Source of the DNA: a virus
Taxonomy: Duplodnaviria > Heunggongvirae > Uroviricota > Caudoviricetes
Direction: 5' to 3' (one strand)
Virus record (IMG/VR): IMGVR_UViG_2740892444_000005
Coordinates: 1-10,687 of that record
Length of the DNA stretch: 10,687 bases
Positions 1 to 10,687 of the stretch are shown piece after piece. Made by a program: the position numbers and the translations under genes. The notes beneath the pieces are model-generated. The model searched no databases and was not told the origin of the DNA. It saw nothing but the letters and a program-made list of their open reading frames with translations. Every line of letters begins with the position of its first letter. Within the stretch, counting starts at the first letter, position 1.

Positions 1-16
1 TTACAAACTCACTACA

Positions 17-340
17 ATGCTGTATAATTCGCGAAGAGTGAATTTAGCTAGTGCATCCATAGGTTCAATTCCTATGCCTACAATTCTCATCACAGCTCTC
101 CTAATAGTCGCATTTATCCGTTACCTCAACGTGTTACTTAACGATTACGTCAGTAAGGAGAAGCCTATGAGTAAATTATTCTGCCATGTAGTACTATATG
201 TATCTTGTTTCATTGAAACTTTTTGGGCTGGGGTGATAAGTGTAGTAGCGGGTCTGATGACGGGCGGTGTCCAAATTATTTTGGCACTAGCTAAATCTTC
301 TCAATTTTTGTTTTTTTATTCAAAGCACTTACACCCATAA
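17..340 (+). CDS. small hydrophobic protein of unknown function (possible membrane peptide); 5' end unresolved
   Basis: The frame is open back to the window start (no in-frame stop in nt 2-16), so the gene may be 5'-partial. An alternative internal start ATG at 177 is preceded by AAGGAG (165-170). The product has hydrophobic stretches (ILITALLIVAF; GVISVVAGLMTGGVQIILALA). I recognise no family. Confidence 0.3.
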   Translation: MLYNSRRVNLASASIGSIPMPTILITALLIVAFIRYLNVLLNDYVSKEKPMSKLFCHVVLYVSCFIETFWAGVISVVAGLMTGGVQIILALAKSSQFLFFYSKHLHP

Positions 341-908
341 ATATTATTTAAATCAATAAACTAAGTCACTCTACGCATATTTTCCTTATCATGGTCTTTC
401 GTGTTTTTTGTACTCAACATGATCGTTTCCCCTTTCTTTAATACACAGTGTGATTAGCTACGTCTTCTGTTGGAGCGAAGTGGACGGGTTAATTGAGCTG
501 AATGTCAGCTATGAGCGAAGAGCGGACTTGAGACTATTGTAAATGAAAACCATATAATTTTAACCGGCAGAAACACATGAGTAATTTTAAGGCTAATTAG
601 TTATCTGGGAGATGAGGGGCAAAGCACGATATCGTACACCAATGGAATAACCTTATGATTAATATAAATATAAAAGACAGAAAGCCTTCCTCAAAATGGC
701 TTGAATCAGGTGCATCTGTCTGCGAAACGATTTTTTAGACGTTTTTATCGCTTTCAGTTCAGTTTTCCCCTCGAATCCAAGTGACAAAGCCGATTTAGTT
801 TTCACACATCCGTACAATGTGCATCCCTCGATGAGCCTTTTCAGGCAAAGTTACGGGGATGCTTGATTCATTTAAACTGAGTTAGTACAACTTAATTAAT
901 AATATCAT

Positions 909-1955
909 TTATGCTAGAGTTGAATATTCTCCATTTCCTCGGTCGGTGAGTGTTAATTCGCGGCCATTTTCTGTAAATGTAATGGCATCCAGCAGGCTTT
1001 TTCCTGTTACAGCTATACCATATCCAAGGTTATCAATCTTTGAACTGTCCTCAGATGATATTGGTATTTGTACAAGCATACCAACAACAAAGCCGTATTT
1101 GTTAATTATAGGGCCACCGCTATTCCCCCCCTTAACCCTAGCATTGAATAATAAAAAGTCTTGTGAATCTAAGTAAGAGTGACCAGAACCAACAATTCGC
1201 CCCTTTGACAGTCGGACAAACGAATTTATATGCGAAACGTCATATAACTTTAATGCATCAAATCCTGGAATGGGTGGAAATCCTATTGATAAAATTTCAT
1301 CCAGTACCGAGGCTTTGGTTGAGACCTTAAGTGGTTGAATATTATCTTCCTTCGGAATGGTTGTGAAAACTAAAGCGATATCAATACGTTCATCGTTAGA
1401 TACAAAGATTTTATGTATTGGTAAAGCCTCACCACCAGCTCTAAGTATCCTGATACTCTTCATGTCTTCAATAACATGTCTGGCTGTAAATATCGTGTGG
1501 TTATTCCCAACAATAAAACTAGTACCAAGATCATGTGAACCATCACTTTTTTCAACAACAACAGGTAAAACGGAAGGACTAAGGCGGTCTATGATTGACT
1601 CAAATCCATCAGCTATAAAATCATACTTTCCATATTTCGCATCTGATTCATTGAAATTCGGTGCGAAATAGCAACGGTCAAAAAGAGTATGTCCTGAAGA
1701 CAATTCCATTAAAATACCTTCAGTTGCTAGCTTTTCACAATTGCGTATTAACTTCATCATATCGAGAGTATTTTCCCACTCAGGTTTGAGACGGGTCAGG
1801 CTCTCAATTGTTTTTCTCTCTTTTACGTTATCGTTTTCCGGTTTGTCATAAAAATATTTCACTATTTCTGTTGGTGTTACATATGTTTTTTTTATAGTCA
1901 TTTTTGTACCCGCGATGACGTTATTCCATATATTTTTCTTTGTAGAAAATATCAC
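909..1955 (-). CDS. trypsin-like (S1/PA-clan) serine protease with uncharacterised ~135-aa N-terminal domain; no obvious signal peptide
   Basis: 348-aa ORF. The catalytic triad is in canonical order and context: His160 in TARHVIED, Asp192 in DIALVF, Ser279 in GGNSGGP (codons at nt ~1119-1121 on the minus strand). The N-terminus is not hydrophobic, so the protein is probably cytoplasmic. The start at 1955 is GTG; an alternative ATG lies at 1901 (M19). Neither has a strong Shine-Dalgarno sequence. The gene is AT-rich. Confidence 0.8.
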   Translation of the reverse strand: MIFSTKKNIWNNVIAGTKMTIKKTYVTPTEIVKYFYDKPENDNVKERKTIESLTRLKPEWENTLDMMKLIRNCEKLATEGILMELSSGHTLFDRCYFAPNFNESDAKYGKYDFIADGFESIIDRLSPSVLPVVVEKSDGSHDLGTSFIVGNNHTIFTARHVIEDMKSIRILRAGGEALPIHKIFVSNDERIDIALVFTTIPKEDNIQPLKVSTKASVLDEILSIGFPPIPGFDALKLYDVSHINSFVRLSKGRIVGSGHSYLDSQDFLLFNARVKGGNSGGPIINKYGFVVGMLVQIPISSEDSSKIDNLGYGIAVTGKSLLDAITFTENGRELTLTDRGNGEYSTLA

Positions 1956-2361
1956 TATTGCTGGTAAATGTTAAGTTCAGTGCTCGCACTAAAGCTGGAT
2001 GATCAACGTCGCCCTCGTATGGAAATCAGGTAAGATTCATGTCTACTTGGGGTCTAGGGTAGACAGCATAAAAACGTACGATAGCGTTCGATTGGCTCTC
2101 ACCCCCGCCTATAAACCATGAGGTTGATAGGGTAGTATCGTTAGGCAATAGTATACATGTAAGTATCCAACCTAATTGGTCTTGAGATTTCTAACTAACG
2201 TGTCGTTATGTCCGCTTTTGGCACATAGCAGTCCTAGAGACAGTGTCGTAAAGTCATGTAGGATCGGTGGGAGGAGGTAAAAATCCTCTCATACAAAAAT
2301 ACGTAAAATCGATAACGGCTGGAGATCATTCAATACTCGCCCTATCGAAAGCTCACCAGCC

Positions 2362-2397
2362 AGCCGCAACACGTTCTTACATATGACGTGTCTGCGG
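2362..2397. repeat. imperfect-palindrome hairpin element, copy A (paired with copy B at 4832-4867)
   Basis: AGCCGCAACACGTTCTTACATATGACGTGTCTGCGG matches 4832-4867 at 30 of 36 positions. It folds as CCGCA-ACACGTT / AACGTG-TGCGG with a 1-nt bulge. Weaker similarity extends into both flanks (ACCA..GCC upstream, TC.AA.C downstream). Confidence 0.6.
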
Positions 2398-2410
2398 TTT
2401 CAACTCCACC

Positions 2411-2447
2411 AGCCCACCAATCATGATTGGGCTTTTTCGTTTTTCTT
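2411..2447 (+). terminator. putative intrinsic terminator (GC-rich hairpin followed by T-tracts)
   Basis: AGCCCACCAATCATGATTGGGCT (stem AGCCCA/TGGGCT) is followed directly by TTTTTCGTTTTTCTT. The T-run follows the hairpin only on the plus strand. No plus-strand ORF lies upstream of it. Confidence 0.55.
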
Positions 2448-2574
2448 CACCTGCAAGCAAACCGTTGTATCATGGCGGAATGAAGATGAGCTAGGAATAA
2501 TCTTACGAATCAGCTCAATATTCATATAAAAACATTTCGAACTTTGGTGTACAAAACTACATAGGGATAACTTT

Positions 2575-3777
2575 ATGTCTCTTCGTTTCAGACAAACCTT
2601 TACTCTATTTCCTGGCGTTCGACTCAACATTGGCAAGCGTGGAATAAGTGCAAGCATTGGCGTGCCTGGCGCAACTGTCAATGTTGGTAAAAAAGGGGTT
2701 AGAGCAACTGTCGGATTACCGGGCACAGGCTTATCTTATACTACACCTACCTTGCCCTATGATGATGGATACTCAGTTACCAATCCATTAAATCCAGCCC
2801 CTACAGAACCTCATTTGGGGTCTGGGTCATCTCCAGAAAATACACCATCGAACGCTAAAATATATATGCCTGTAGCTGGCATGAATGAAATATCCAGCGC
2901 TTCGGTAGAAGTCCTTACAAGTACCTCCCTTTTACCTTTACGAGATTTGATTGCTAAAGCACGAGAACAAAGAGCAGAAATAAAAGCAGATCTTCAAGAG
3001 GCTCTTGCCGAAGAATCAAAACAAAAAAGCGAGCTGGCTCGACGCAAATCAAGTCTATTCCGTTGGTTTTACAAACGACGCATCGCAGAACTTGAGACAC
3101 TACTCCCCCTAACCCAAGCTGAGATATCTCGCCTAGTTTCATGGGAAGACAGCACAAAAATAGCCATAACATTCGAGAGCAGTGATGCTTCACAGCGCGC
3201 ATATGCAGCGATGGTCCATGCATTTGATATGTTAAAATCGAGTGTCAAAAAATGGGATATTACTGCAGATAAAGCTACAGACCAGTTTGCTGAAAGAACA
3301 TTAGCAACCCGGTCTGTTAATCGTCACCCAGTTACCTTTGATTTTAGTTCAACGGATCTCATTCAATTTACAGGGCGTGCGATGAGGTTTGAAAATGTGA
3401 ATGGAGACGATATTTTGCTTTATCCTGGAGTTGCAGTCATACCACGAGCTGATGGAGCATTCGCTCTGATTGATTTACGCGAATTACAAATTAATTCAGA
3501 ATATCTAAGATTCCATGAGGAAGAAGGTGTTCCCAGTGACTCACGCATAGATGGTTATACATGGGCGAAAACGAATAAGAATGGCTCACCAGACCGTCGT
3601 TTTAAAGATAACTACCAAATCCCTATTTGCATTTATGGAAATATTACTTTCCATTCTCAAACAGGGGTAACTGAAGAATATATGGTATCAAATGCAGATG
3701 CCGCGCACGCCTTTGCTGAGGCAGTAAAACGTTATCAGATTTCACTCACAGAAACAGAAGCGTTGGTACAGGCCTGA
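2575..3777 (+). CDS. DUF4236-type protein (N-terminal Gly/Lys/Arg-rich DUF4236-like module, P/S/T-rich linker, predicted coiled coil, uncharacterised C-terminal domain)
   Basis: 400-aa ORF with ATG at 2575 and RBS AGGGA at 2563-2567. The N-terminus RFRQTFTLFPGVRLNIGKRGISASIGVPGATVNVGKKGVRATVGLPGTGLSY matches my recollection of the DUF4236 signature. A low-complexity linker (PTLPYDDGYSVTNPLNPAPTEPHLGSGSSPENTPSN) and a charged helical segment (AKAREQRAEIKADLQEALAEESKQKSELARRK) follow. I cannot assign the C-terminal ~200 aa. The gene is AT-rich. Confidence 0.85.
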   Translation: MSLRFRQTFTLFPGVRLNIGKRGISASIGVPGATVNVGKKGVRATVGLPGTGLSYTTPTLPYDDGYSVTNPLNPAPTEPHLGSGSSPENTPSNAKIYMPVAGMNEISSASVEVLTSTSLLPLRDLIAKAREQRAEIKADLQEALAEESKQKSELARRKSSLFRWFYKRRIAELETLLPLTQAEISRLVSWEDSTKIAITFESSDASQRAYAAMVHAFDMLKSSVKKWDITADKATDQFAERTLATRSVNRHPVTFDFSSTDLIQFTGRAMRFENVNGDDILLYPGVAVIPRADGAFALIDLRELQINSEYLRFHEEEGVPSDSRIDGYTWAKTNKNGSPDRRFKDNYQIPICIYGNITFHSQTGVTEEYMVSNADAAHAFAEAVKRYQISLTETEALVQA

Positions 3778-3836
3778 TTTATCGCCGATATGGGGACGAA
3801 TCGTAGGTTAAAACCCCCTAGAACAAAAAAAACCTT

Positions 3837-3864
3837 AAGAACCAGACTATTATGGCTGGTTCTT
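3837..3864. other. perfect 9-bp-stem hairpin between the two cassette genes (possible terminator/attenuator)
   Basis: AAGAACCAG-(10 nt loop)-CTGGTTCTT. It lies 60 nt after the stop of the 2575-3777 gene and is preceded by an A8 tract (3823-3830). That gives a T8 run after the hairpin on the minus strand, with a 4-nt spacer. There is no clean T-run after it on the plus strand, so orientation and function are ambiguous. Confidence 0.3.
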
Positions 3865-3881
3865 GTACGGAGGATTTGTTA

Positions 3882-3908
3882 TTGTACAACTCTTCTATCT
3901 GGTATATT
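3882..3908 (+). promoter_or_regulatory. candidate sigma70 promoter with extended -10 for the DUF2971 gene
   Basis: -35-like TTGTAC (3882-3887), a 15-bp spacer (short), TG at 3900-3901 and -10 TATATT (3903-3908), i.e. TGgTATATT. It lies ~80 nt upstream of the ATG at 3991. Motif match only. Confidence 0.3.
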
Positions 3909-3990
3909 TACGGATAGAACTGTTCAGGCTACTCAATCCTTTTTAAGTACAAATGAACAGATAGAAATAGTTATATTGCAAGGAGCTATC

Positions 3991-4779
3991 ATGCACACTG
4001 AGTATATATGGCGATACCTTGACATAGAGAAATTCTCTATGTTACTCGAACAAAATGCTTTATTTTTTTGCTCAGCAAAAAATTTTGAAGATCCGTTCGA
4101 AGGTGAATTTGCTTGGGGACATACTGGCTATAAAAAATTCATTGAGACACAGGAAAAACTATGCGCTACTTATGGTGCCGGCATGGACTTAGATCCTTTC
4201 ATGGCATTCAATTTAAAGACACTTAAGGAAATAAGCGAGAGGACATATATAAGTTGCTGGCATTGTAACGAACATGAATCTGAAGCTATGTGGAAGCTGT
4301 ATTGTAAAAACCCCGCTAAAGGCGTTGTCATAAAATCAAAGAAAAAAAACCTCCAAAGCCAACTTGAAAATAATAATCTAAACAAACTACAATTAAAACA
4401 CGTAAAATACGTCAAAAATTTCTGGATAAAACAATACAATCCAGAATCAGATGTATTCTTTAACAAGAGACCATCTTTCGAATACGAAAAAGAGTTTAGA
4501 GCTATTTTTCAAGAGAATACCTTTAACACTCCACCTGTAAAGGGAAAACTAGTCCCTGTATCTCTTAATAATCTGTTGGAAGAAATAAGGATTTCACCTT
4601 TCGCAGATAAGGATTTCAAAAATGAAGTTTTACAAATTTCAAAAAAACATGGACTAGATCTGAAAGTCAAAAACTCTGAAATTGAAATGCATCCCATCAT
4701 GCATGTTGAGGAAGAAATAATTGCAGAAGGCCCCAATTGGTATCAGTCAAAAATCAGATTGGCAATACGTGATGCTTAA
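3991..4779 (+). CDS. DUF2971-type protein
   Basis: 262-aa product starting at the ATG at 3991, which is preceded by AGGAG (3981-3985). The ORF-track start at 3790 is rejected because it has no RBS and the extension spans the hairpin. The family hallmarks as I recall them are present: YIWRYLDIEKFSMLLEQNALFFCSAKNFEDPFEGEF, CWHCNEHESEAMWKLYCKNPAKGVVIK and FEYEKEFRAIF. The gene is AT-rich. Confidence 0.85.
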   Translation: MHTEYIWRYLDIEKFSMLLEQNALFFCSAKNFEDPFEGEFAWGHTGYKKFIETQEKLCATYGAGMDLDPFMAFNLKTLKEISERTYISCWHCNEHESEAMWKLYCKNPAKGVVIKSKKKNLQSQLENNNLNKLQLKHVKYVKNFWIKQYNPESDVFFNKRPSFEYEKEFRAIFQENTFNTPPVKGKLVPVSLNNLLEEIRISPFADKDFKNEVLQISKKHGLDLKVKNSEIEMHPIMHVEEEIIAEGPNWYQSKIRLAIRDA

Positions 4780-4831
4780 TCTTATATTGAAGTTTTTTAT
4801 GTCTCCTGCTGAAACTAGCTAAAATTTACCA

Positions 4832-4867
4832 AGCCGCAGCACGTTATTGCATACAACGTGTATGCGG
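4832..4867. repeat. imperfect-palindrome hairpin element, copy B; probable bidirectional terminator between convergent DUF2971 gene and tfa
   Basis: AGCCGCAGCACGTTATTGCATACAACGTGTATGCGG has the same fold as copy A. It lies 15 nt from the tfa stop (4883-4885) and ~50 nt after the DUF2971 stop. Confidence 0.6.
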
Positions 4868-4882
4868 CGTATCTCAAAACGA

Positions 4883-5467
4883 TTACTCCATAACAGGGAC
4901 AGCAGGCCACTCAATATCAGGTGCAGTTGATGTATCAACACGGTTCAGCAACACCCGATACTTCTTCCAGGCTTCCAGCAACGAGTTTTCTTCCTCCGTT
5001 GCGATCTCCAGATCTACAGCATCCTGAAGTGGCGCAATATGCTCACTGGCTACCTGCATCAGGCTGTTTTTTGTTTCTTCCGCCTCCCGGATCCGGAACA
5101 GTTTTTCTGCTTCCGTATCCTTCACCCAGGCTGTGCCGTTCCACTTCTGAAACTCCCCTTCCGGCGATAACCAGGTAACATTTTCCGGTAACGGACCGAG
5201 TTCAGAAATAAATAACGCGTCGCCGGAAGCCACGTCATAAACCGTTTTACCCCGATGGTCTTCAACGAGATGCCACGATGCCTCATCACTGTTGAAAACA
5301 GCCACAAAGCCAGCAGGAATATCTGGTGGTGCAATATCGGTACTGTTTGCTGGCAGACCTGTATGAGGCGGAATATATGCGTCACCTTCACCAATAAATT
5401 CATTAGTCCCGACCAGCAGATTATAAATTTTTATGGTCCGTGGTTGTTCACTCATTCTGAATGCCAT
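4883..5467 (-). CDS. tfa: tail fiber assembly protein (lambda Tfa-like)
   Basis: 194-aa product, [18 protein letters not shown]...EWPAVPVME, is near-identical in length and sequence to lambda Tfa as I recall it. Its start overlaps the upstream stf stop (TAATG on the minus strand at 5465-5469). Confidence 0.9.
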
Positions 5468-6678
5468 TATGCAAGCCTCACAATATAGTTAAATGCGATG
5501 TTTTTGACGGTGTTTTCCGCATTACCAGCAGCGTTAACGGTGATGGTGTGTCCATGTGAACCAATCGCAACGGAGTGCGTATGAGCACCAATACCGACAG
5601 TATGCGCGTGTGCACCTGCAGATGCTGCTGTGCCGGACAGTGAGTGGCTATGATTACCATCTGTACTGGTATTAGCTAACCACCCCGTAGACATACCTAC
5701 TGAGCCTTGTACACCCCAGGTATTTTGACCTGAGCTTGTATAACCATATTGATAAGTATCTTTAAAAACACTGGGGTTAAATCGACGGCCATCTCTATGG
5801 CTGTGATTACCAGCTGCATTCGTGCTGCCACTTAAACTATGAGTATGCGCACCAGTGTTATTCGTGGATTTAGTGCCGTAATCAAACGATGATGTGGTTT
5901 TCGTACCCAAATCCGTACTGGATACGCTGGCGCTGTGGGTGTGCGATTTAATGCCGTCCTGTTCCTGAGACAATACGGCACGACCACTGGCGGGCTTGCC
6001 CTTAATCGTCCAGCCACGCATATCAGGGATCACGCCTGACGGATAAGCGGCTGCAAGTTTCGGGTAAGCAGATTTGTCAAAAGTCTGCCCCTGCATCAGG
6101 GCATAACCAGACGGAACGGTATCTGATGGCCACGGGATTGGTGCGCCGACTGGGTAGCTTTCTGGTGGAAGATTTTTCGAGGTATAAACTTCTGCCCAGT
6201 CTTCCTCAAAACCATAACCGTCTCTTGAAGAACGGTAGAACAGACCACCATTTCTGTAATGCGCCTTCATCTGCAGGGTCCGGCAACTTCCGACTCCGGT
6301 ATAGAAGTTAACCAGAATATAGCTGTCGCCAGAGCGGGTGACATTGTAAGCGCCTGATTCGGCATTCCAGGGAACGCCACCATCCGCATCGGCATATGTA
6401 TCCGTTGCCCTTCTGGCAAAAGCAGCCACATGCGCGGCGGTTATCCAGATTAACCAAATCCTTGTTGTTGGGGAATAACTAGGTCCACCTCGCCTGATGT
6501 GGCTAAAAGCAGGCACATAACAGCTAAGTATTTTCAACCAGAGAGAATCCTTAGCGTTGTGGTGAATGCGGCTCAGCGCACGCGGGTTAAGGTTGAGGCT
6601 GACAGTCGACCTTCTGTGGATACCCACCCGCCTGGTGTGCAACCTTCGCCAGGCACCGGGAGGCACCCGGCACCACAA
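5467..6678 (-). pseudogene. stf: side tail fiber protein remnant (C-terminal portion only, 5'-truncated)
   Basis: The C-terminal ~320 aa match the lambda Stf / StfR-type C-terminus as I recall it ([31 protein letters not shown]...[25 protein letters not shown]...[27 protein letters not shown]), including the periodic His-rich motifs (GAHTHS, GNHSHS, GAHAHT, GSHGHT). The N-terminal ~85 aa of the ORF (nt ~6420-6678) read as non-protein-like sequence, and no plausible start or upstream stf body is present. Full-length Stf is far longer. Confidence 0.8.
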
Positions 6679-6701
6679 CTTTATGCTGTGTGTAGTCCTG
6701 G

Positions 6702-6747
6702 CGGTACCAGTTTGTACCCTTGCTTCCGGCTGGTACCGTCCTTTTTT
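6702..6747 (+). terminator. putative intrinsic terminator (9-bp perfect stem, T6 tract)
   Basis: CGGTACCAG (6702-6710) and CTGGTACCG (6730-6738) form a perfect inverted repeat, each arm containing GGTACC, with a 19-nt loop. It is followed by TCC then TTTTTT (6742-6747). The T-run is on the plus strand only. The loop is unusually long. Confidence 0.4.
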
Positions 6748-6748
6748 G

Positions 6749-6835
6749 CAAAACAGAGAAGAGCATCACCGGACGACGGGCTCATAACCCAATCCATCCG
6801 GGCGGCTGCCACCGCAGGTGTTCTTCTCTGTTTTG
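6749..6835. repeat. long inverted repeat / extended hairpin (14-bp perfect arms, ~59-nt spacer) upstream of the yfdP-like gene
   Basis: CAAAACAGAGAAGA (6749-6762) pairs with TCTTCTCTGTTTTG (6822-6835). The pairing extends imperfectly inward (ATCACC.. with ..GGTG). It sits immediately after the 6702-6747 hairpin and ~50 nt upstream of the yfdP-like start. Confidence 0.4.
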
Positions 6836-6884
6836 TGGAGAAACCAACCGACCTTGCAGGGTCGATATGATGAGGAGCAGCAAA

Positions 6885-7247
6885 ATGGCTAGCGAACGCA
6901 GTACTGATGTGCAGGCATTTATCGGGGAGCTGGACGGCGGCGTATTTGAAACCAAAATCGGCGCAGTTCTCAGTGAAGTCGCTTCCGGTGTGATGAACAC
7001 GAAAACCAAAGGGAAGGTCTCACTCAATCTGGAAATCGAACCGTTTGATGAGAACCGTGTGAAAATCAAACACAAACTCTCATATGTTCGCCCAACTAAC
7101 CGCGGGAAAATTTCTGAAGAAGACACCACCGAAACGCCGATGTATGTCAATCGCGGTGGTCGCCTGACTATTCTGCAGGAAGACCAGGGACAATTACTGA
7201 CTCTTGCCGGTGAGCCTGACGGAAAACTCCGCGCAGCAGGTCATTAA
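6885..7247 (+). CDS. yfdP: YfdP-like prophage protein (unknown function)
   Basis: 120-aa product starting MASERSTDVQAFIGELDGG, from the ATG at 6885 preceded by GAGGAG (6872-6877). Alternative in-frame ATGs at 6867 and 6870 would add 5-6 aa. Length and sequence match my recollection of K-12 CPS-53 YfdP; the symbol is from memory. Confidence 0.65.
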   Translation: MASERSTDVQAFIGELDGGVFETKIGAVLSEVASGVMNTKTKGKVSLNLEIEPFDENRVKIKHKLSYVRPTNRGKISEEDTTETPMYVNRGGRLTILQEDQGQLLTLAGEPDGKLRAAGH

Positions 7248-7312
7248 TATCGTTCTTAATTAACTGATTATTTATCTCATCACTGAATATCTTAATATAG
7301 TGAGGACTTATT

Positions 7313-8137
7313 ATGTCTCAGAACTTAGACGCAACCGCAATTAATCAAATCCATGCCCTTATTTCTGCTCAGGGTGTTAATGAAATTATCAGTAAGATTG
7401 GTGCCGATGCTGTGGCATTGCCTGAGAATTTCCGCATTCATGATCTGGAAAAATTTAATTTAAATCGCTTCCGTTTCCGTGGTGCGCTTTCCACTGCCAG
7501 CATCGATGACTTTACCCGTTATTCTAAAGATCTTGCAGATGAAGGCACCCGCTGCTTTATCGATGCTGATAATATGCGTGCCGTCAGTGTGCTTAACCTG
7601 GGTACTATTGATGAACCAGGTCACGCAGATAACACCGCCACTCTCAAACTGAAAAAGACAGCACCGTTCTCTGCCCTGTTGTCTGTTAACGGCGAGCGTA
7701 ACGCCCAGAAATCACTGGCAGAATGGATTGAAGACTGGGCAGACTACCTTGTGGGCTTTGATGCTAATGGTGACGCCATTCAGGCAACAAAAGCGGCTGC
7801 GGCAATCCGTAAAATCACGATTGAAGCAAACCAGACCGCTGATTTTGAAGATAATGACTTCAGCGGCAAACGCTCCCTGATGGAATCTGTCGAAGCGAAG
7901 ACCAAAGACATTATGCCAGTGGCATTTGAATTTAAATGCGTTCCGTTTGAAGGTCTGAAAGAACGTCCGTTTAAATTACGCCTCAGCATTATCACTGGCG
8001 ATCGTCCTGTACTGGTTCTGCGCATTATTCAGCTGGAAGCGGTGCAGGAAGATATGGCTAACGAATTTCGTGATCTGCTTGTTGAGAAATTCAAAGACAG
8101 CAAAGTAGAAACCTTTATTGGTACTTTCACCGCCTGA
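7313..8137 (+). CDS. yfdQ: YfdQ-like prophage protein (DUF2303 family)
   Basis: 274-aa product starting [26 protein letters not shown], with RBS GAGGA at 7303-7307. It matches my recollection of K-12 YfdQ (274 aa). Confidence 0.8.
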
Positions 8138-8149
8138 TTTCATTACTGC

Positions 8150-8171
8150 AAATGCCCCTGTGGGGGCATTT
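8150..8171 (+). other. hairpin after yfdQ-like gene (weak candidate terminator/attenuator)
   Basis: AAATGCCCC-TGTG-GGGGCATTT: a 9-bp perfect stem with a 4-nt loop, 13 nt after the yfdQ stop. The T residues lie inside the 3' arm rather than forming a free U-tract, so termination is uncertain. Confidence 0.25.
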
Positions 8172-8264
8172 ATGGAAACGTAATTAACTCAATAATCACC
8201 GAATGGTGAGGGCTTCCTTTTACCCAAACTCAGCGCGGTGCAGCGCATATACGTGGAGAACAAA

Positions 8265-8801
8265 ATGTCATTTATTAAAACTTTTTCCGGGAAGCATTTT
8301 TATTATGACAAGATAAATAAAGACGACATCGTGATTAACGATATCGCGGTTTCCCTTTCAAATATCTGCCGCTTTGCCGGTCATCTTTCTCACTTCTACA
8401 GTGTCGCCCAACATGCGGTGCTTTGCAGCCAGCTGGTGCCGCAGGAATTTGCTTTTGAAGCGTTAATGCATGATGCAACAGAAGCGTATTGCCAGGACAT
8501 CCCCGCACCACTGAAACGCCTTCTTCCTGACTATAAACGGATGGAAGAAAAAATAGATGCAGTAATCCGTGAGAAATACGGGTTACCTCCTGTTATGAGC
8601 ACGCCAGTGAAATATGCCGATCTCATTATGCTGGCAACCGAACGCCGTGATCTCGGGCTTGATGATGGCTCTTTATGGCCTGTACTGGAAGGTATCCCGG
8701 CAACAGAGATGTTCAAAGTTATTCCACTGGCACCGGGCCATGCCTACGGGATGTTTATGGAACGCTTCAACGAGTTATCGGAATTACGCAAATGTGCATA
8801 A
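8265..8801 (+). CDS. yfdR: HD-domain phosphohydrolase (YfdR-like)
   Basis: 178-aa product from the ATG at 8265 (RBS GGAGAA at 8255-8260; the ORF-track start at 8238 is rejected). It has HD-superfamily motifs (HLSHFYSVAQHAVL; ALMHDATEAYCQD). It matches my recollection of K-12 YfdR. Confidence 0.85.
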   Translation: MSFIKTFSGKHFYYDKINKDDIVINDIAVSLSNICRFAGHLSHFYSVAQHAVLCSQLVPQEFAFEALMHDATEAYCQDIPAPLKRLLPDYKRMEEKIDAVIREKYGLPPVMSTPVKYADLIMLATERRDLGLDDGSLWPVLEGIPATEMFKVIPLAPGHAYGMFMERFNELSELRKCA

Positions 8802-9670
8802 CTCATGTAGTTAGTTTTTCTGGCGGGAGAACATCCGCATATCTTGTTCACCTGATGGAAGAACAAAGAAAGGCTGGCAATAACGTCTGCTACATCTTTA
8901 TGGATACCGGTTGCGAACATCCGCTGACATACCGCTTTATCCGGGAGGTTGTGAAGTTCTGGGACATACCACTAACTGTGTTACAGGTCGATATAAATCC
9001 TGAGCTTGGGCAGCCAAATGGTTATACAGAATGGGAGCCAAAGGATATTCAGACACGAATGCCGGTGCTTAAACCGTTTATGGACATGGTTAAAAAGTAC
9101 GGCACGCCATACATCGGCGGCGCGTTCTGTACTGACAGGCTAAAACTCATCCCTTTCACGAAATACTGCGATAACCATTTCGGACGAGGTAATTACATCA
9201 CATGGCTGGGTATTCGTGCAGACGAACCCCGTAGGCTGAAACCGAAATCGGGCATCCGGTATCTTGCCGAGCTGTCAGATTTTGATAAGTCGGATGTTAT
9301 CCGGTGGTGGCGAAAACAACCTTTTGATTTGCAAATCCCGGAGCATCTCGGGAACTGTGTTTTCTGCATCAAAAAGTCAACGCAAAAGCTGGGGCTTGCA
9401 TGTAAAGACGAACCAGGTCTGATGCGAGTTTTTAATGAGCTGGTTACAGGCAAACACGTCAGGGATGGTCATCGCAGAACAGGTAAAGACATTATGTACC
9501 GTGGTCACCTGACGCTTGACGGAATTGCCAGAATGTCTGCCAACAGCGACTACAGAAATTTGTATCAGGCAATGGTACAGGCCAGGCGATTCGATACCGG
9601 CTCGTGTTCAGAGTCATGTGAAATCTGGGGTGATCAATTGGAATTGGAATTCGAAGAGGTAGGGGTATGA
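8792..9670 (+). CDS. PAPS-reductase-like / PP-loop ATP-pyrophosphatase family protein (phage type)
   Basis: 292-aa product from the ATG at 8792, which overlaps the yfdR stop (ATGTGCATAA). The N-terminal PP-loop motif SFSGGRTS is present. Relatives are common in lambdoid prophage early regions. The ORF-track start at 8675 is rejected because it would overlap yfdR by ~40 codons. Confidence 0.8.
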   Translation: MCITHVVSFSGGRTSAYLVHLMEEQRKAGNNVCYIFMDTGCEHPLTYRFIREVVKFWDIPLTVLQVDINPELGQPNGYTEWEPKDIQTRMPVLKPFMDMVKKYGTPYIGGAFCTDRLKLIPFTKYCDNHFGRGNYITWLGIRADEPRRLKPKSGIRYLAELSDFDKSDVIRWWRKQPFDLQIPEHLGNCVFCIKKSTQKLGLACKDEPGLMRVFNELVTGKHVRDGHRRTGKDIMYRGHLTLDGIARMSANSDYRNLYQAMVQARRFDTGSCSESCEIWGDQLELEFEEVGV

Positions 9671-10011
9671 CAACCGAAATCAGCTACCATGCACTGCTTG
9701 AGCGCGCACGGAATAAAGTGCAGAGCATTGAGTTCGCCTTAACACAGAGTGCATTCGCTGAGATTCGCGCTGAGCTTGAAAATGATTTAGAACTGGCACG
9801 GATTGCACTGGCATCTCTGGAAGTTGAGCCAGATGAACGCGCAGCCTATGAATTATTTATGGAAAAGCGTTTCGGTAAAACAGTCGATCGTCGGAGAGCA
9901 AAAAACGGCGATAACGAATACATGGCATGGGATATGACTCTCGGTTGGATCGTCTGGCAGCAACGAGCTGGTATCCATTTTTCAACAATGTCACAGCAAG
10001 AGGTGAAATAA
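9667..10011 (+). CDS. hypothetical prophage early-region protein
   Basis: 114-aa ORF. Its ATG overlaps the upstream stop (ATGA at 9667-9670) and its stop overlaps the xis start (TAATG at 10009-10013). Acidic, helical-looking sequence. No family recognised. Confidence 0.65.
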   Translation: MTTEISYHALLERARNKVQSIEFALTQSAFAEIRAELENDLELARIALASLEVEPDERAAYELFMEKRFGKTVDRRRAKNGDNEYMAWDMTLGWIVWQQRAGIHFSTMSQQEVK

Positions 10012-10361
10012 TGGAGCCATACAGCCTCACACTCGATGAGGCCTGTCATTTTCTCAAGATATCCAGACCGACTGCCATTAACTGGATACGCACAGGGCGT
10101 CTTCAGGCAACACGCAAAGATCCCACTAAGAATAAATCTCCTTACCTCACAACACGACAAGCCTGCATTGCGGCTCTTCAGTCTCCGCTGCATACTGTCC
10201 AGGTGAGCGCGGGTGATGGCATAACAGAGGAAAGAAAATGTCACTCTTCCGCAGAGGTGAAATATGGTACGCCAGTTTCACATTGCCGAACGGTAAAAGA
10301 TTTAAACAGTCTCTTGGAACAAAGGACAAAAGGCAGGCGACAGAACTCCATGACAAGCTAA
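10011..10361 (+). CDS. xis: excisionase (P22 Xis-like)
   Basis: 116-aa product [40 protein letters not shown], with RBS GAGGTGA at 10002-10008. It matches my recollection of P22-type Xis in length and sequence. It sits immediately upstream of, and overlapping, the integrase start. Confidence 0.75.
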
Positions 10362-10687
10362 AGGCTGAAGCATGGCGGGTCAGCAAACTTGGTGAAATAC
10401 CTGATATAACGTTCGAGGAAGCGTGTGTCAGGTGGCTTGAAGAGAAAGCACATAAAAAATCACTGGACGATGACAAAAGCCGGATCGGATTCTGGCTTCA
10501 ACATTTCGCAGGAATGCAACTAAGAGACATTACTGAATCAAAAATTTATTCAGCAATGCAGAAAATGACGAACCGGCGTCATGAGGAAAACTGGAAACTC
10601 AGGGCAGAAGCATGCAGAAAAAAAGGGAAACCTGTTCCAGAATACACGCCAAAACCAGCGTCCGTTGCAACGAAGGCTACGCACTGA
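10238..10687 (+). CDS. int: tyrosine integrase, N-terminal (arm-binding) region only; frame ends at TGA 10685-10687
   Basis: [46 protein letters not shown] is the N-terminus of P22 / CPS-53 IntS-type integrases as I recall them. RBS AGAGGA at 10226-10231. The frame terminates after 149 aa, whereas family members are ~385 aa. No catalytic domain is visible in this window. Confidence 0.8.

Follow-up and report, generated by a model that had tools for sequence, protein, structure and literature searches.

We analyzed a 10,687-nucleotide stretch of viral DNA (Caudoviricetes; IMG/VR record IMGVR_UViG_2740892444_000005), referred to throughout as the window, with a focus on a protease gene at positions 909 to 1901 of its minus strand. 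The gene is predicted to encode a soluble enzyme that joins an N-terminal winged helix to an HtrA-like serine protease, and it is carried by itself in a mobile cassette bounded by inverted repeats; we hold this gene model, domain architecture and stand-alone mobile-cassette nature with high confidence. Genomic context further gives roughly an even chance that the protease, expressed from its prophage, excludes phage or aborts infection as a one-gene device. The features on which this account rests are as follows.

498..529, no strand: distal (3′) cassette boundary, the inverted-repeat/hairpin element CTGAATGTCAGCTATGAGCGAAGAGCGGACTT, located by motif scans; identity to P2-type, lambdoid and e14-type contexts begins here.
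909..1901, minus strand: protease gene, 330 amino acids (aa), WP_034169312.1 ‘S1 family peptidase’, with its stop codon at 909-911.
912..1001, minus strand: C-terminal tail, residues 301-330, two short helices and a beta-hairpin in the AlphaFold2 secondary structure, not a PDZ domain.
1002..1565, minus strand: HtrA/Deg-type chymotrypsin-fold protease domain, residues 113-300.
1476-1478, 1380-1382 and 1119-1121, minus strand: catalytic codons for H142, D174 and S261, respectively.
1566..1901, minus strand: N-terminal domain, residues 1-112, a predicted winged-helix fold (about 1-82) and a helical linker with conserved Y90/Y93/G99/F100.
1946..1974, minus strand: sigma-70-type promoter-like element TTAACA-17-(TGa)TATTTT with an extended −10, from a promoter scan; it includes GTG 1955.
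2201..2232, no strand: proximal (5′) cassette boundary, a degenerate inverted-repeat copy beginning ATGTCCGCTTTTGGCACATAGC; the DUF4236/DUF2971 module starts directly beyond it.

In its longest form the minus-strand open reading frame (ORF) spans 909..1955 and opens at GTG 1955, and a first-pass annotation made from the sequence had left the choice between this codon and ATG 1901 uncertain. Several lines of evidence place the start at ATG 1901, which gives a protein of 330 aa with the triad H142/D174/S261. Residues 19-348 in the GTG numbering cover the entire PHROG 18002 profile (1-330 of 330, E = 9e-234), the RefSeq/PGAP annotation of the gene is 909-1901, the proteins in an alignment of homologues (n = 41) open at the methionine of ATG 1901, and two loci of 79-86% identity (L007 and L064) carry in-frame stops directly upstream of the ATG. 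GTG 1955, by contrast, lies inside the promoter-like element, which is kept in L007, L011 and L064 (79-86% identical) though the flanking bases diverge, and we rejected it as a start codon. Because the triad is invariant and the pairwise ratio of non-synonymous to synonymous substitution (dN/dS) against enterobacterial homologues is 0.12-0.15, with values of 0.09-0.21 across both protein domains, the frame reads as a constrained coding gene and not a chance ORF. A weak match to Pfam CTD12 (ABC-3C; E = 0.0039, under the cut-off) fell mostly in the non-coding 18-residue extension and was discarded.

The catalytic residues lie in the motifs TARHVIED, DIALVF and GGNSGGP, which the first-pass annotation had recognized as H160/D192/S279, counted from GTG 1955, and had taken as the mark of an intact triad. 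Neither the three catalytic residues nor the GGNSGGP loop varies among 41 homologues at identities down to 26%, and because the triad is both intact and conserved, the protease is probably enzymatically active, as had been proposed. Pfam Trypsin_2 (PF13365) matches residues 144-293 (E = 1.9e-17, 64.8 bits versus a cut-off of 27.6); the ordered His-Asp-Ser triad, the GxSGG motif and this score above cut-off place the protein in peptidase family S1 of clan PA. An AlphaFold2 model built on the family alignment (pLDDT 86.6, pTM 0.85), in which the loop at residues 213-227 alone is poorly defined, predicts the double beta-barrel chymotrypsin fold of this class. Sequence matches in the PDB were weak (E ≥ 1e-6) and spanned residues about 90-315 only. 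Alignment to a DegP-like protease puts V256 at the position of DegP Ile205, so the S1 pocket is probably hydrophobic; the invariant K257 was rejected as a residue lining the pocket, since the same alignment places V256, and not K257, at that position.

The closest matches in both sequence and fold were HtrA-family proteases, which invites the alternative that the gene encodes an exported housekeeping protease of the DegP/DegQ/DegS type. We consider this extremely improbable. Kyte-Doolittle hydropathy revealed no signal peptide, lipobox or transmembrane segment with either start, the 19-residue mean peaking at 1.2 and staying at or below 0.19 over the first 40 windows of either form. The absence of an N-terminal signal peptide, noted earlier for the longer form, therefore holds for the corrected start as well, and because a hydrophobic N-terminal segment is absent, the protease is likely cytoplasmic. 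No PDZ domain was matched in Pfam, and just 30 residues follow the protease domain. NCBIfam models gave 20-46 bits against cut-offs of 408-800, about 10-fold too low (best, 45.6 versus 416.2 for TIGR02037; DegS, 33.9 versus 408; DegP, 20 versus 720). HtrA, DegP and DegS (MEROPS S1C) have PDZ domains, an export signal and core-gene status, whereas the protease here has an N-terminal winged helix, shares sequence similarity of only about 20% with them, and is encoded by an accessory gene at 38% GC, whose coding sequence occurs at ≥99.4% identity in 41 of 5,426 complete E. coli genomes (0.76%). The protein is thus not a DegP/HtrA housekeeping orthologue, a possibility that the first-pass annotation had flagged as fatal to its own reading.

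That annotation had also set apart about 135 N-terminal aa as matching nothing recognizable. With the corrected start the domain is shorter, at 112 aa, and structure prediction now suggests a fold for it, a winged helix followed by an aromatic helical linker, the helices of which (residues 85-110) hold the four most conserved residues of the domain. The domain is under purifying selection (dN/dS 0.16-0.21). A search with its profile against 1.84 billion representative proteins gave 182 matches at E ≤ 0.001; among the proteins gathered for this analysis, the protease domain was also present in 192 of the 206 with the N-domain, and of the remaining 14, one matches only weakly and in a repeat-like manner, while 13, at ≤167 aa, are perhaps truncated. 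Near-full-length family members, nearly all of 302-370 aa (three are 381-463 aa), match the N-domain and protease profiles only. By these profiles the two domains form one fixed architecture, and we rejected the idea of a sensor module shuffled among effectors, the search having returned fusion to this protease only. None of the predicted viral structures matched both domains (query TM-score ≤ 0.51). The domain has no conserved basic positions and a median net charge of −1, so a classical DNA-binding winged helix is not supported, and it is more likely that the winged helix binds protein than sequence-specific DNA.

The cassette that carries the gene is about 1.7 kb, the shared DNA corresponding to window 498-2229 and reaching to about 2400-2430 in e14-like contexts. 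P2 and lambdoid contexts have their breakpoint at 2229-2231; that of the neighboring DUF4236/DUF2971 cassette lies at 2208-2210. The arms at 508-527 and 2210-2229 are the top inverted-repeat pair, though an imperfect one, and each copy contains the core GTCCGCT-N10-AGCGGAC. In a P2 context (L013) the arms are 33 nt long (6587-6619/8302-8334), and further pairs lie at 5683-5706/7148-7171 in L064, 3062-3085/4020-4043 in L003 and 7594-7617/11267-11290 in L059; the same repeat flanks a Klebsiella plasmid copy. It also bounds unrelated cargo, namely DUF6602 (one clear copy, L002), a 261-aa ORF, DUF2254 with BCCT, and an HNH gene in the P2 slot. Counting partial matches, a 55-nt repeat-containing probe found 4,364 places in 2,601 of the 5,426 E. 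coli genomes, and all of those listed were intergenic. Most repeat copies did not fold significantly better than shuffled sequence.

GenBank records of P2-like coliphages (AJ512676-AJ512685, ‘proviral Z-region’) place the motif within an annotated ‘left inverted repeat’, and AJ512680 also annotates a ‘right inverted repeat’; the repeats enclose ORFs that are labeled ‘putative lysogenic conversion protein’ and have promoters of their own. The hairpins were accordingly dismissed as a new type of mobile-element end. Because its boundary repeats match these annotated ones, the protease module is best classified as a P2 Z-region-type cassette that circulates outside P2 too. Cassettes for lysogenic conversion in the P2 Z-region (Z/fun) were reportedly described by Nilsson, Karlsson and Haggard-Ljungquist in 2004. 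The protease cassette resembles them in its G-FI slot (13 genomes), flanking inverted repeats, own promoter and AT-rich single-gene cargo; it differs in that its cargo gene is absent from INPHARED phage records and in that it also occurs in lambdoid and e14-like prophages and on Klebsiella plasmids.

Across the 41 E. coli genomes the gene lies in five contexts.

15 of 41 genomes: lambdoid remnant of the window type, beside DUF4236/DUF2971.
13 of 41 genomes: P2-like prophage, between the tail-fiber assembly gene G and the sheath gene FI (the Z/fun slot).
11 of 41 genomes: e14-like element, beside a BRO-N gene.
1 of 41 genomes: lambdoid prophage near hokD.
1 of 41 genomes: beside an integrase and a GIY-YIG gene.

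The window copy itself belongs to the lambdoid remnant and lies beyond a tail-fiber assembly gene and the DUF4236/DUF2971 module, unlike the 13 copies at the G-FI position. More distant cassettes (79-86% identity) share the gene and about 80-110 bp upstream and nothing more, and this group includes cassettes on two Klebsiella IncF plasmids. The cassette is therefore mobile between prophage hotspots and plasmids. Its GC content is 38%, versus 48% for window 5000-10687, which together with the prophage contexts confirms the earlier description of AT-rich prophage cargo. The family as a whole was found at 44 loci in 185,579 species genomes and in 12 of 2.9 million IMG/VR contigs, and its taxa comprise Proteobacteria, Bacteroidota, Cyanobacteria, Nitrospinota and Deinococcus.

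To learn whether the gene has a regular partner, we compared all ORFs against all within ±6 kb of 52 loci (Proteobacteria, Bacteroidota, Cyanobacteria, Nitrospinota and others). No neighbor family occurred in more than three of the 52 loci, the larger clusters being antisense shadow ORFs within the protease gene only, and the protease gene is therefore a stand-alone unit without a conserved partner. We likewise rejected a partner, whether ORF or RNA, concealed beside the gene in the cassette: the flanks hold only ORFs of 27-52 aa, are not conserved in the 79-86% homologous cassettes, and gave no Rfam match.

The first-pass annotation had correctly described the protease gene as divergent from DUF4236, and had raised the possibility that the protease acts on its cassette neighbors. 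Were the protease to process or regulate the DUF4236/DUF2971 proteins as one system, the adjacent, divergent arrangement in the window and in 15 genomes would be explained, and yet we regard this as highly improbable. Those 15 are the only ones of the 5,426 genomes in which protease and pair occur together; about 430 further genomes hold the pair (from about 2208-2210 on) without the protease and with a DUF6602 gene in its slot, and in 26 of the 41 protease-bearing genomes the pair does not adjoin the protease. The boundary repeat at about 2201-2232 parts the two modules, and no homologue of either protein lies beside the protease at other loci. With independent occurrence in both directions and no conserved neighbor in the 52 loci, we rejected the linkage, and the functional association proposed earlier did not survive.

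DUF4236 and DUF2971 (window 2575-3777 and 4039-4779) form an independent module, present in about 448 E. coli genomes. For the DUF2971 gene the longest ORF begins at 3790, but the PGAP start is window 4039 (246 aa); the DUF2971 product matches the PADLOC candidate PDC-S31 (E = 2.6e-20). The DUF6602 protein occupies the protease slot in most genomes with DUF4236/DUF2971 (L002 4422-5738 and L003 4441-5820), and shows at its N-terminus a match (E about 1e-9) to a PD-(D/E)xK nuclease model; in L002 a 604-aa PDC-S71 protein lies near it. The slot shared by protease and DUF6602 behaves as a cargo-swap site.

Two loci place the protease near a reverse transcriptase. In strain CP66-6 (L001 2412-4777 and 7969-8835), just left of the window, there is a DRT8 reverse transcriptase (E = 5e-166) with a PD-(D/E)xK partner; this pair lies in a P4-like remnant in which IS3 splits the integrase, and with a 288-aa PDC-S64-like protein about 1 kb past the protease the region forms a stack of defense-type cargo. 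At the second (L008 5848-8324), a 39%-identical protease homologue and a 474-aa reverse transcriptase (RVT_1) lie tail-to-tail, separated by 39 bp, and a large SNF2-type helicase is close by. Since this arrangement is not conserved at other loci, it is probably co-residence in a defense island, and we rejected a specific link to either the CP66-6 DRT8 or the L008 reverse transcriptase on the same ground.

We next considered what a stand-alone protease of this kind might do. A phage-exclusion or abortive-infection function, in line with the defense effector that the first-pass annotation had suspected, is plausible from the company that the gene keeps. The lysogenic-conversion type of its cassette and its sporadic, mobile distribution point the same way. 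P2 fun excludes phage T5. Nearly a third of the E. coli copies (13/41) occupy the P2 Z/fun slot, a recognized defense hotspot; a 2026 survey (PMC13586616) counts as defense hotspots both the Z/fun locus and one among the tail genes of P2, the latter holding 16% of recognizable P2 defense systems. The E. coli surroundings include DRT8 with its PD-(D/E)xK partner, PDC-S64-like and PDC-S71-like proteins, and DUF2971 (PDC-S31). At some loci the neighbors of homologues include GAPS4, HEPN_AbiU2, DUF4238, which protects against T7 (PMC9122126), FRG/PDC-S15, a reverse transcriptase with SNF2, a pAgo with a TIR partner, retron VII, AbiEii, PglZ, restriction-modification methyltransferases and several PADLOC candidate families; these neighbors, like the housekeeping ones given below, are a raw, uncorrected listing. 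Trypsin-fold proteases, moreover, are established defense modules (PMC12799240, PMC7736814).

A number of observations weigh against a role in defense. Housekeeping genes surround some homologues (Nitrospina L004, Algibacter L010), and neighbor Pfam families include RRF, TrmD and LptF. The N-domain has never recombined with other effector domains, unlike many defense sensor modules. No full-length model in PADLOC v2.0.0 matched the protein, which gave domain-level matches only, the best candidate-family match being PDC-M35A (E = 3.3e-7, residues 126-295). Looked up by accession, PHROG identifier and keyword, the literature yielded nothing on this family or architecture. Finally, accessory hotspots of prophages take up non-defense cargo too, among it the cytolethal distending toxin and the plasmid-partitioning system at the cos-proximal hotspot of P2 (PMC9122126).

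The defense systems nearest to the protein in kind are Hachiman (HamMAB), AVAST/Avs1, Lamassu and DRT/retron type XI, which likewise use cytoplasmic trypsin-fold proteases in anti-phage immunity and whose trypsin-like modules have been described (Tuck et al. 2025, PMC12799240; Mestre et al. 2020, PMC7736814). The PADLOC models RT-Protease_XI, LmuA and HamA match our catalytic domain with E values of 8e-13 to 2e-7, through the protease part of the profiles only. In those systems, however, the protease is fused to a sensor enzyme and activates a paired upstream MBL pro-nuclease. No fusion to HamA, Avs, LmuA or a reverse transcriptase was found in the protease family, and no MBL pro-nuclease gene was found among the top neighbor Pfam families, among conserved neighbors at the 52 loci, or in the E. 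coli contexts, which were inspected directly. PHROG 18002, in which the protein has full-length membership, is a family without functional annotation and so supplies a name only. The architecture is not covered by any paper or defense-database model that we found.

Protease-based bacterial immunity is known mainly from multi-component systems, with a protease of trypsin-like or caspase-like type switching on a partner effector; to our knowledge, the only other case is the metalloprotease Lit. Lit, from prophage e14, is a zinc metalloprotease triggered by the T4 Gol peptide, and its target is EF-Tu. It too is a single prophage-encoded cytoplasmic protease, and its activation by a phage peptide, leading to aborted infection, serves as the template for the function proposed here, although its fold is unrelated and it is a metalloprotease where ours is a serine protease.

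Window 498-2229 is a self-contained, horizontally mobile ‘moron’ made up of inverted repeat, own promoter, one gene and inverted repeat, and for its phage-exclusion function a hypothetical mechanism can be modeled on HtrA allostery and on Lit. Its product is predicted to be a soluble cytoplasmic enzyme in which the winged helix and aromatic linker pack on a PDZ-less HtrA-like protease, and the winged helix would take over the regulatory or substrate-recruiting role of PDZ domains. Binding of a phage-derived ligand, or a phage-induced change, would license the protease to cut a phage protein or an essential host protein, and infection would be blocked. A bolder version, which we advance tentatively and as rather less probable than the broader phage-exclusion function, is a complete immune system in one polypeptide, of a type that would be new. 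Here the winged helix, as a direct sensor of phage protein or nucleic acid, would switch on the protease allosterically and so abort the infection. No partner nuclease, ATPase or antitoxin would be involved, and the system would spread as an inverted-repeat-bounded cassette among plasmids and prophage hotspots.

The same observations can be read in other ways. A protease that serves lysogenic conversion or host fitness and has no part in phage defense, such as a cytoplasmic enzyme of quality control or regulation that helps the lysogen or plasmid host under stress, would agree with the HtrA-type fold, which is typical of protein quality control, with the GenBank annotation of sister Z-region cassettes merely as ‘putative lysogenic conversion protein’, with the housekeeping neighborhoods of some homologues, and with a plasmid copy beside arsenic-resistance and toxin-antitoxin genes. 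A generally useful stress function would not be expected to be as sporadic as this family (0.76% of E. coli; 44 loci in 185,579 species genomes), to be placed repeatedly in prophage hotspots and beside defense genes, or to have a dedicated winged helix, which suggests a specific ligand. We judge this function to be a possibility of lesser weight, fairly unlikely but the most probable after phage exclusion.

The carriers themselves, which are prophages, plasmids and metagenomic viral contigs, together with the early or accessory gene setting in viral contigs, suggest instead a weapon of the mobile element, with the protease degrading host immune or competitor proteins. Such a counter-defense or inter-element role is unlikely, in that many members are chromosomal with no mobile element visible, INPHARED phage genomes give one weak match only (23% identity), and the conserved sigma-70-type promoter-like element, which stands apart from the phage operons, would suit a gene expressed by the lysogen.

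A cytoplasmic protease that lacks an obvious inhibitor has to be restrained, and this opens the further reading of an addiction-type toxin held in check by its own N-domain or by a small unannotated partner, so as to stabilize the carrier element. The IetS/IetA protease-ATPase toxin-antitoxin pair offers a precedent (PMC13069673), and toxin-antitoxin genes adjoin the plasmid copy; the cassette flanks, with their short unconserved ORFs and lack of an Rfam family match, yielded no conserved partner ORF, and we think this reading quite improbable.

If the protease is indeed a phage-exclusion device, a stand-alone serine protease with a small recognition domain would be among the simplest sensor-effector designs and an easy model for how a cytoplasmic protease stays silent and what it cleaves in the course of infection. 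A gene that recurs in the P2 Z/fun hotspot and in cargo slots of lambdoid and e14-like type would gain a function, and defense catalogues would gain a family of about 180 clusters (at 50% identity). Should the defense function be wrong, the false link to DUF4236/DUF2971 is still removed and the gene model corrected.

Beyond the cassette, window bases 1-4900 match E. coli chromosomes exactly, for example CP053723, where the region is a degraded lambdoid prophage adjoining tRNA-Thr/proA. Window 5097-8901, which holds a tail-fiber fragment, a DUF2303/YfdQ-like gene and an HD-domain YfdR-like gene, is missing from CP053723 (the one 100%-matching genome whose flank was examined). Truncated tfa and PAPS-reductase genes directly adjoin each other in that genome, and the window is thus a less deleted version of this prophage remnant. 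A full-length Rfam IS009 match (window 4926-5124, minus strand; 227 bits versus a gathering score of 117) lies inside the tail-fiber assembly gene. Distant family members (28-31% identity) occur in non-enterobacterial IMG/VR viral contigs of 36-48 kb (L078 4917-5960 and L077 4983-6008), where the proteases sit among HNH endonuclease, PAPS-reductase and unknown genes, the L078 protease on the opposite strand to most of its neighbors.

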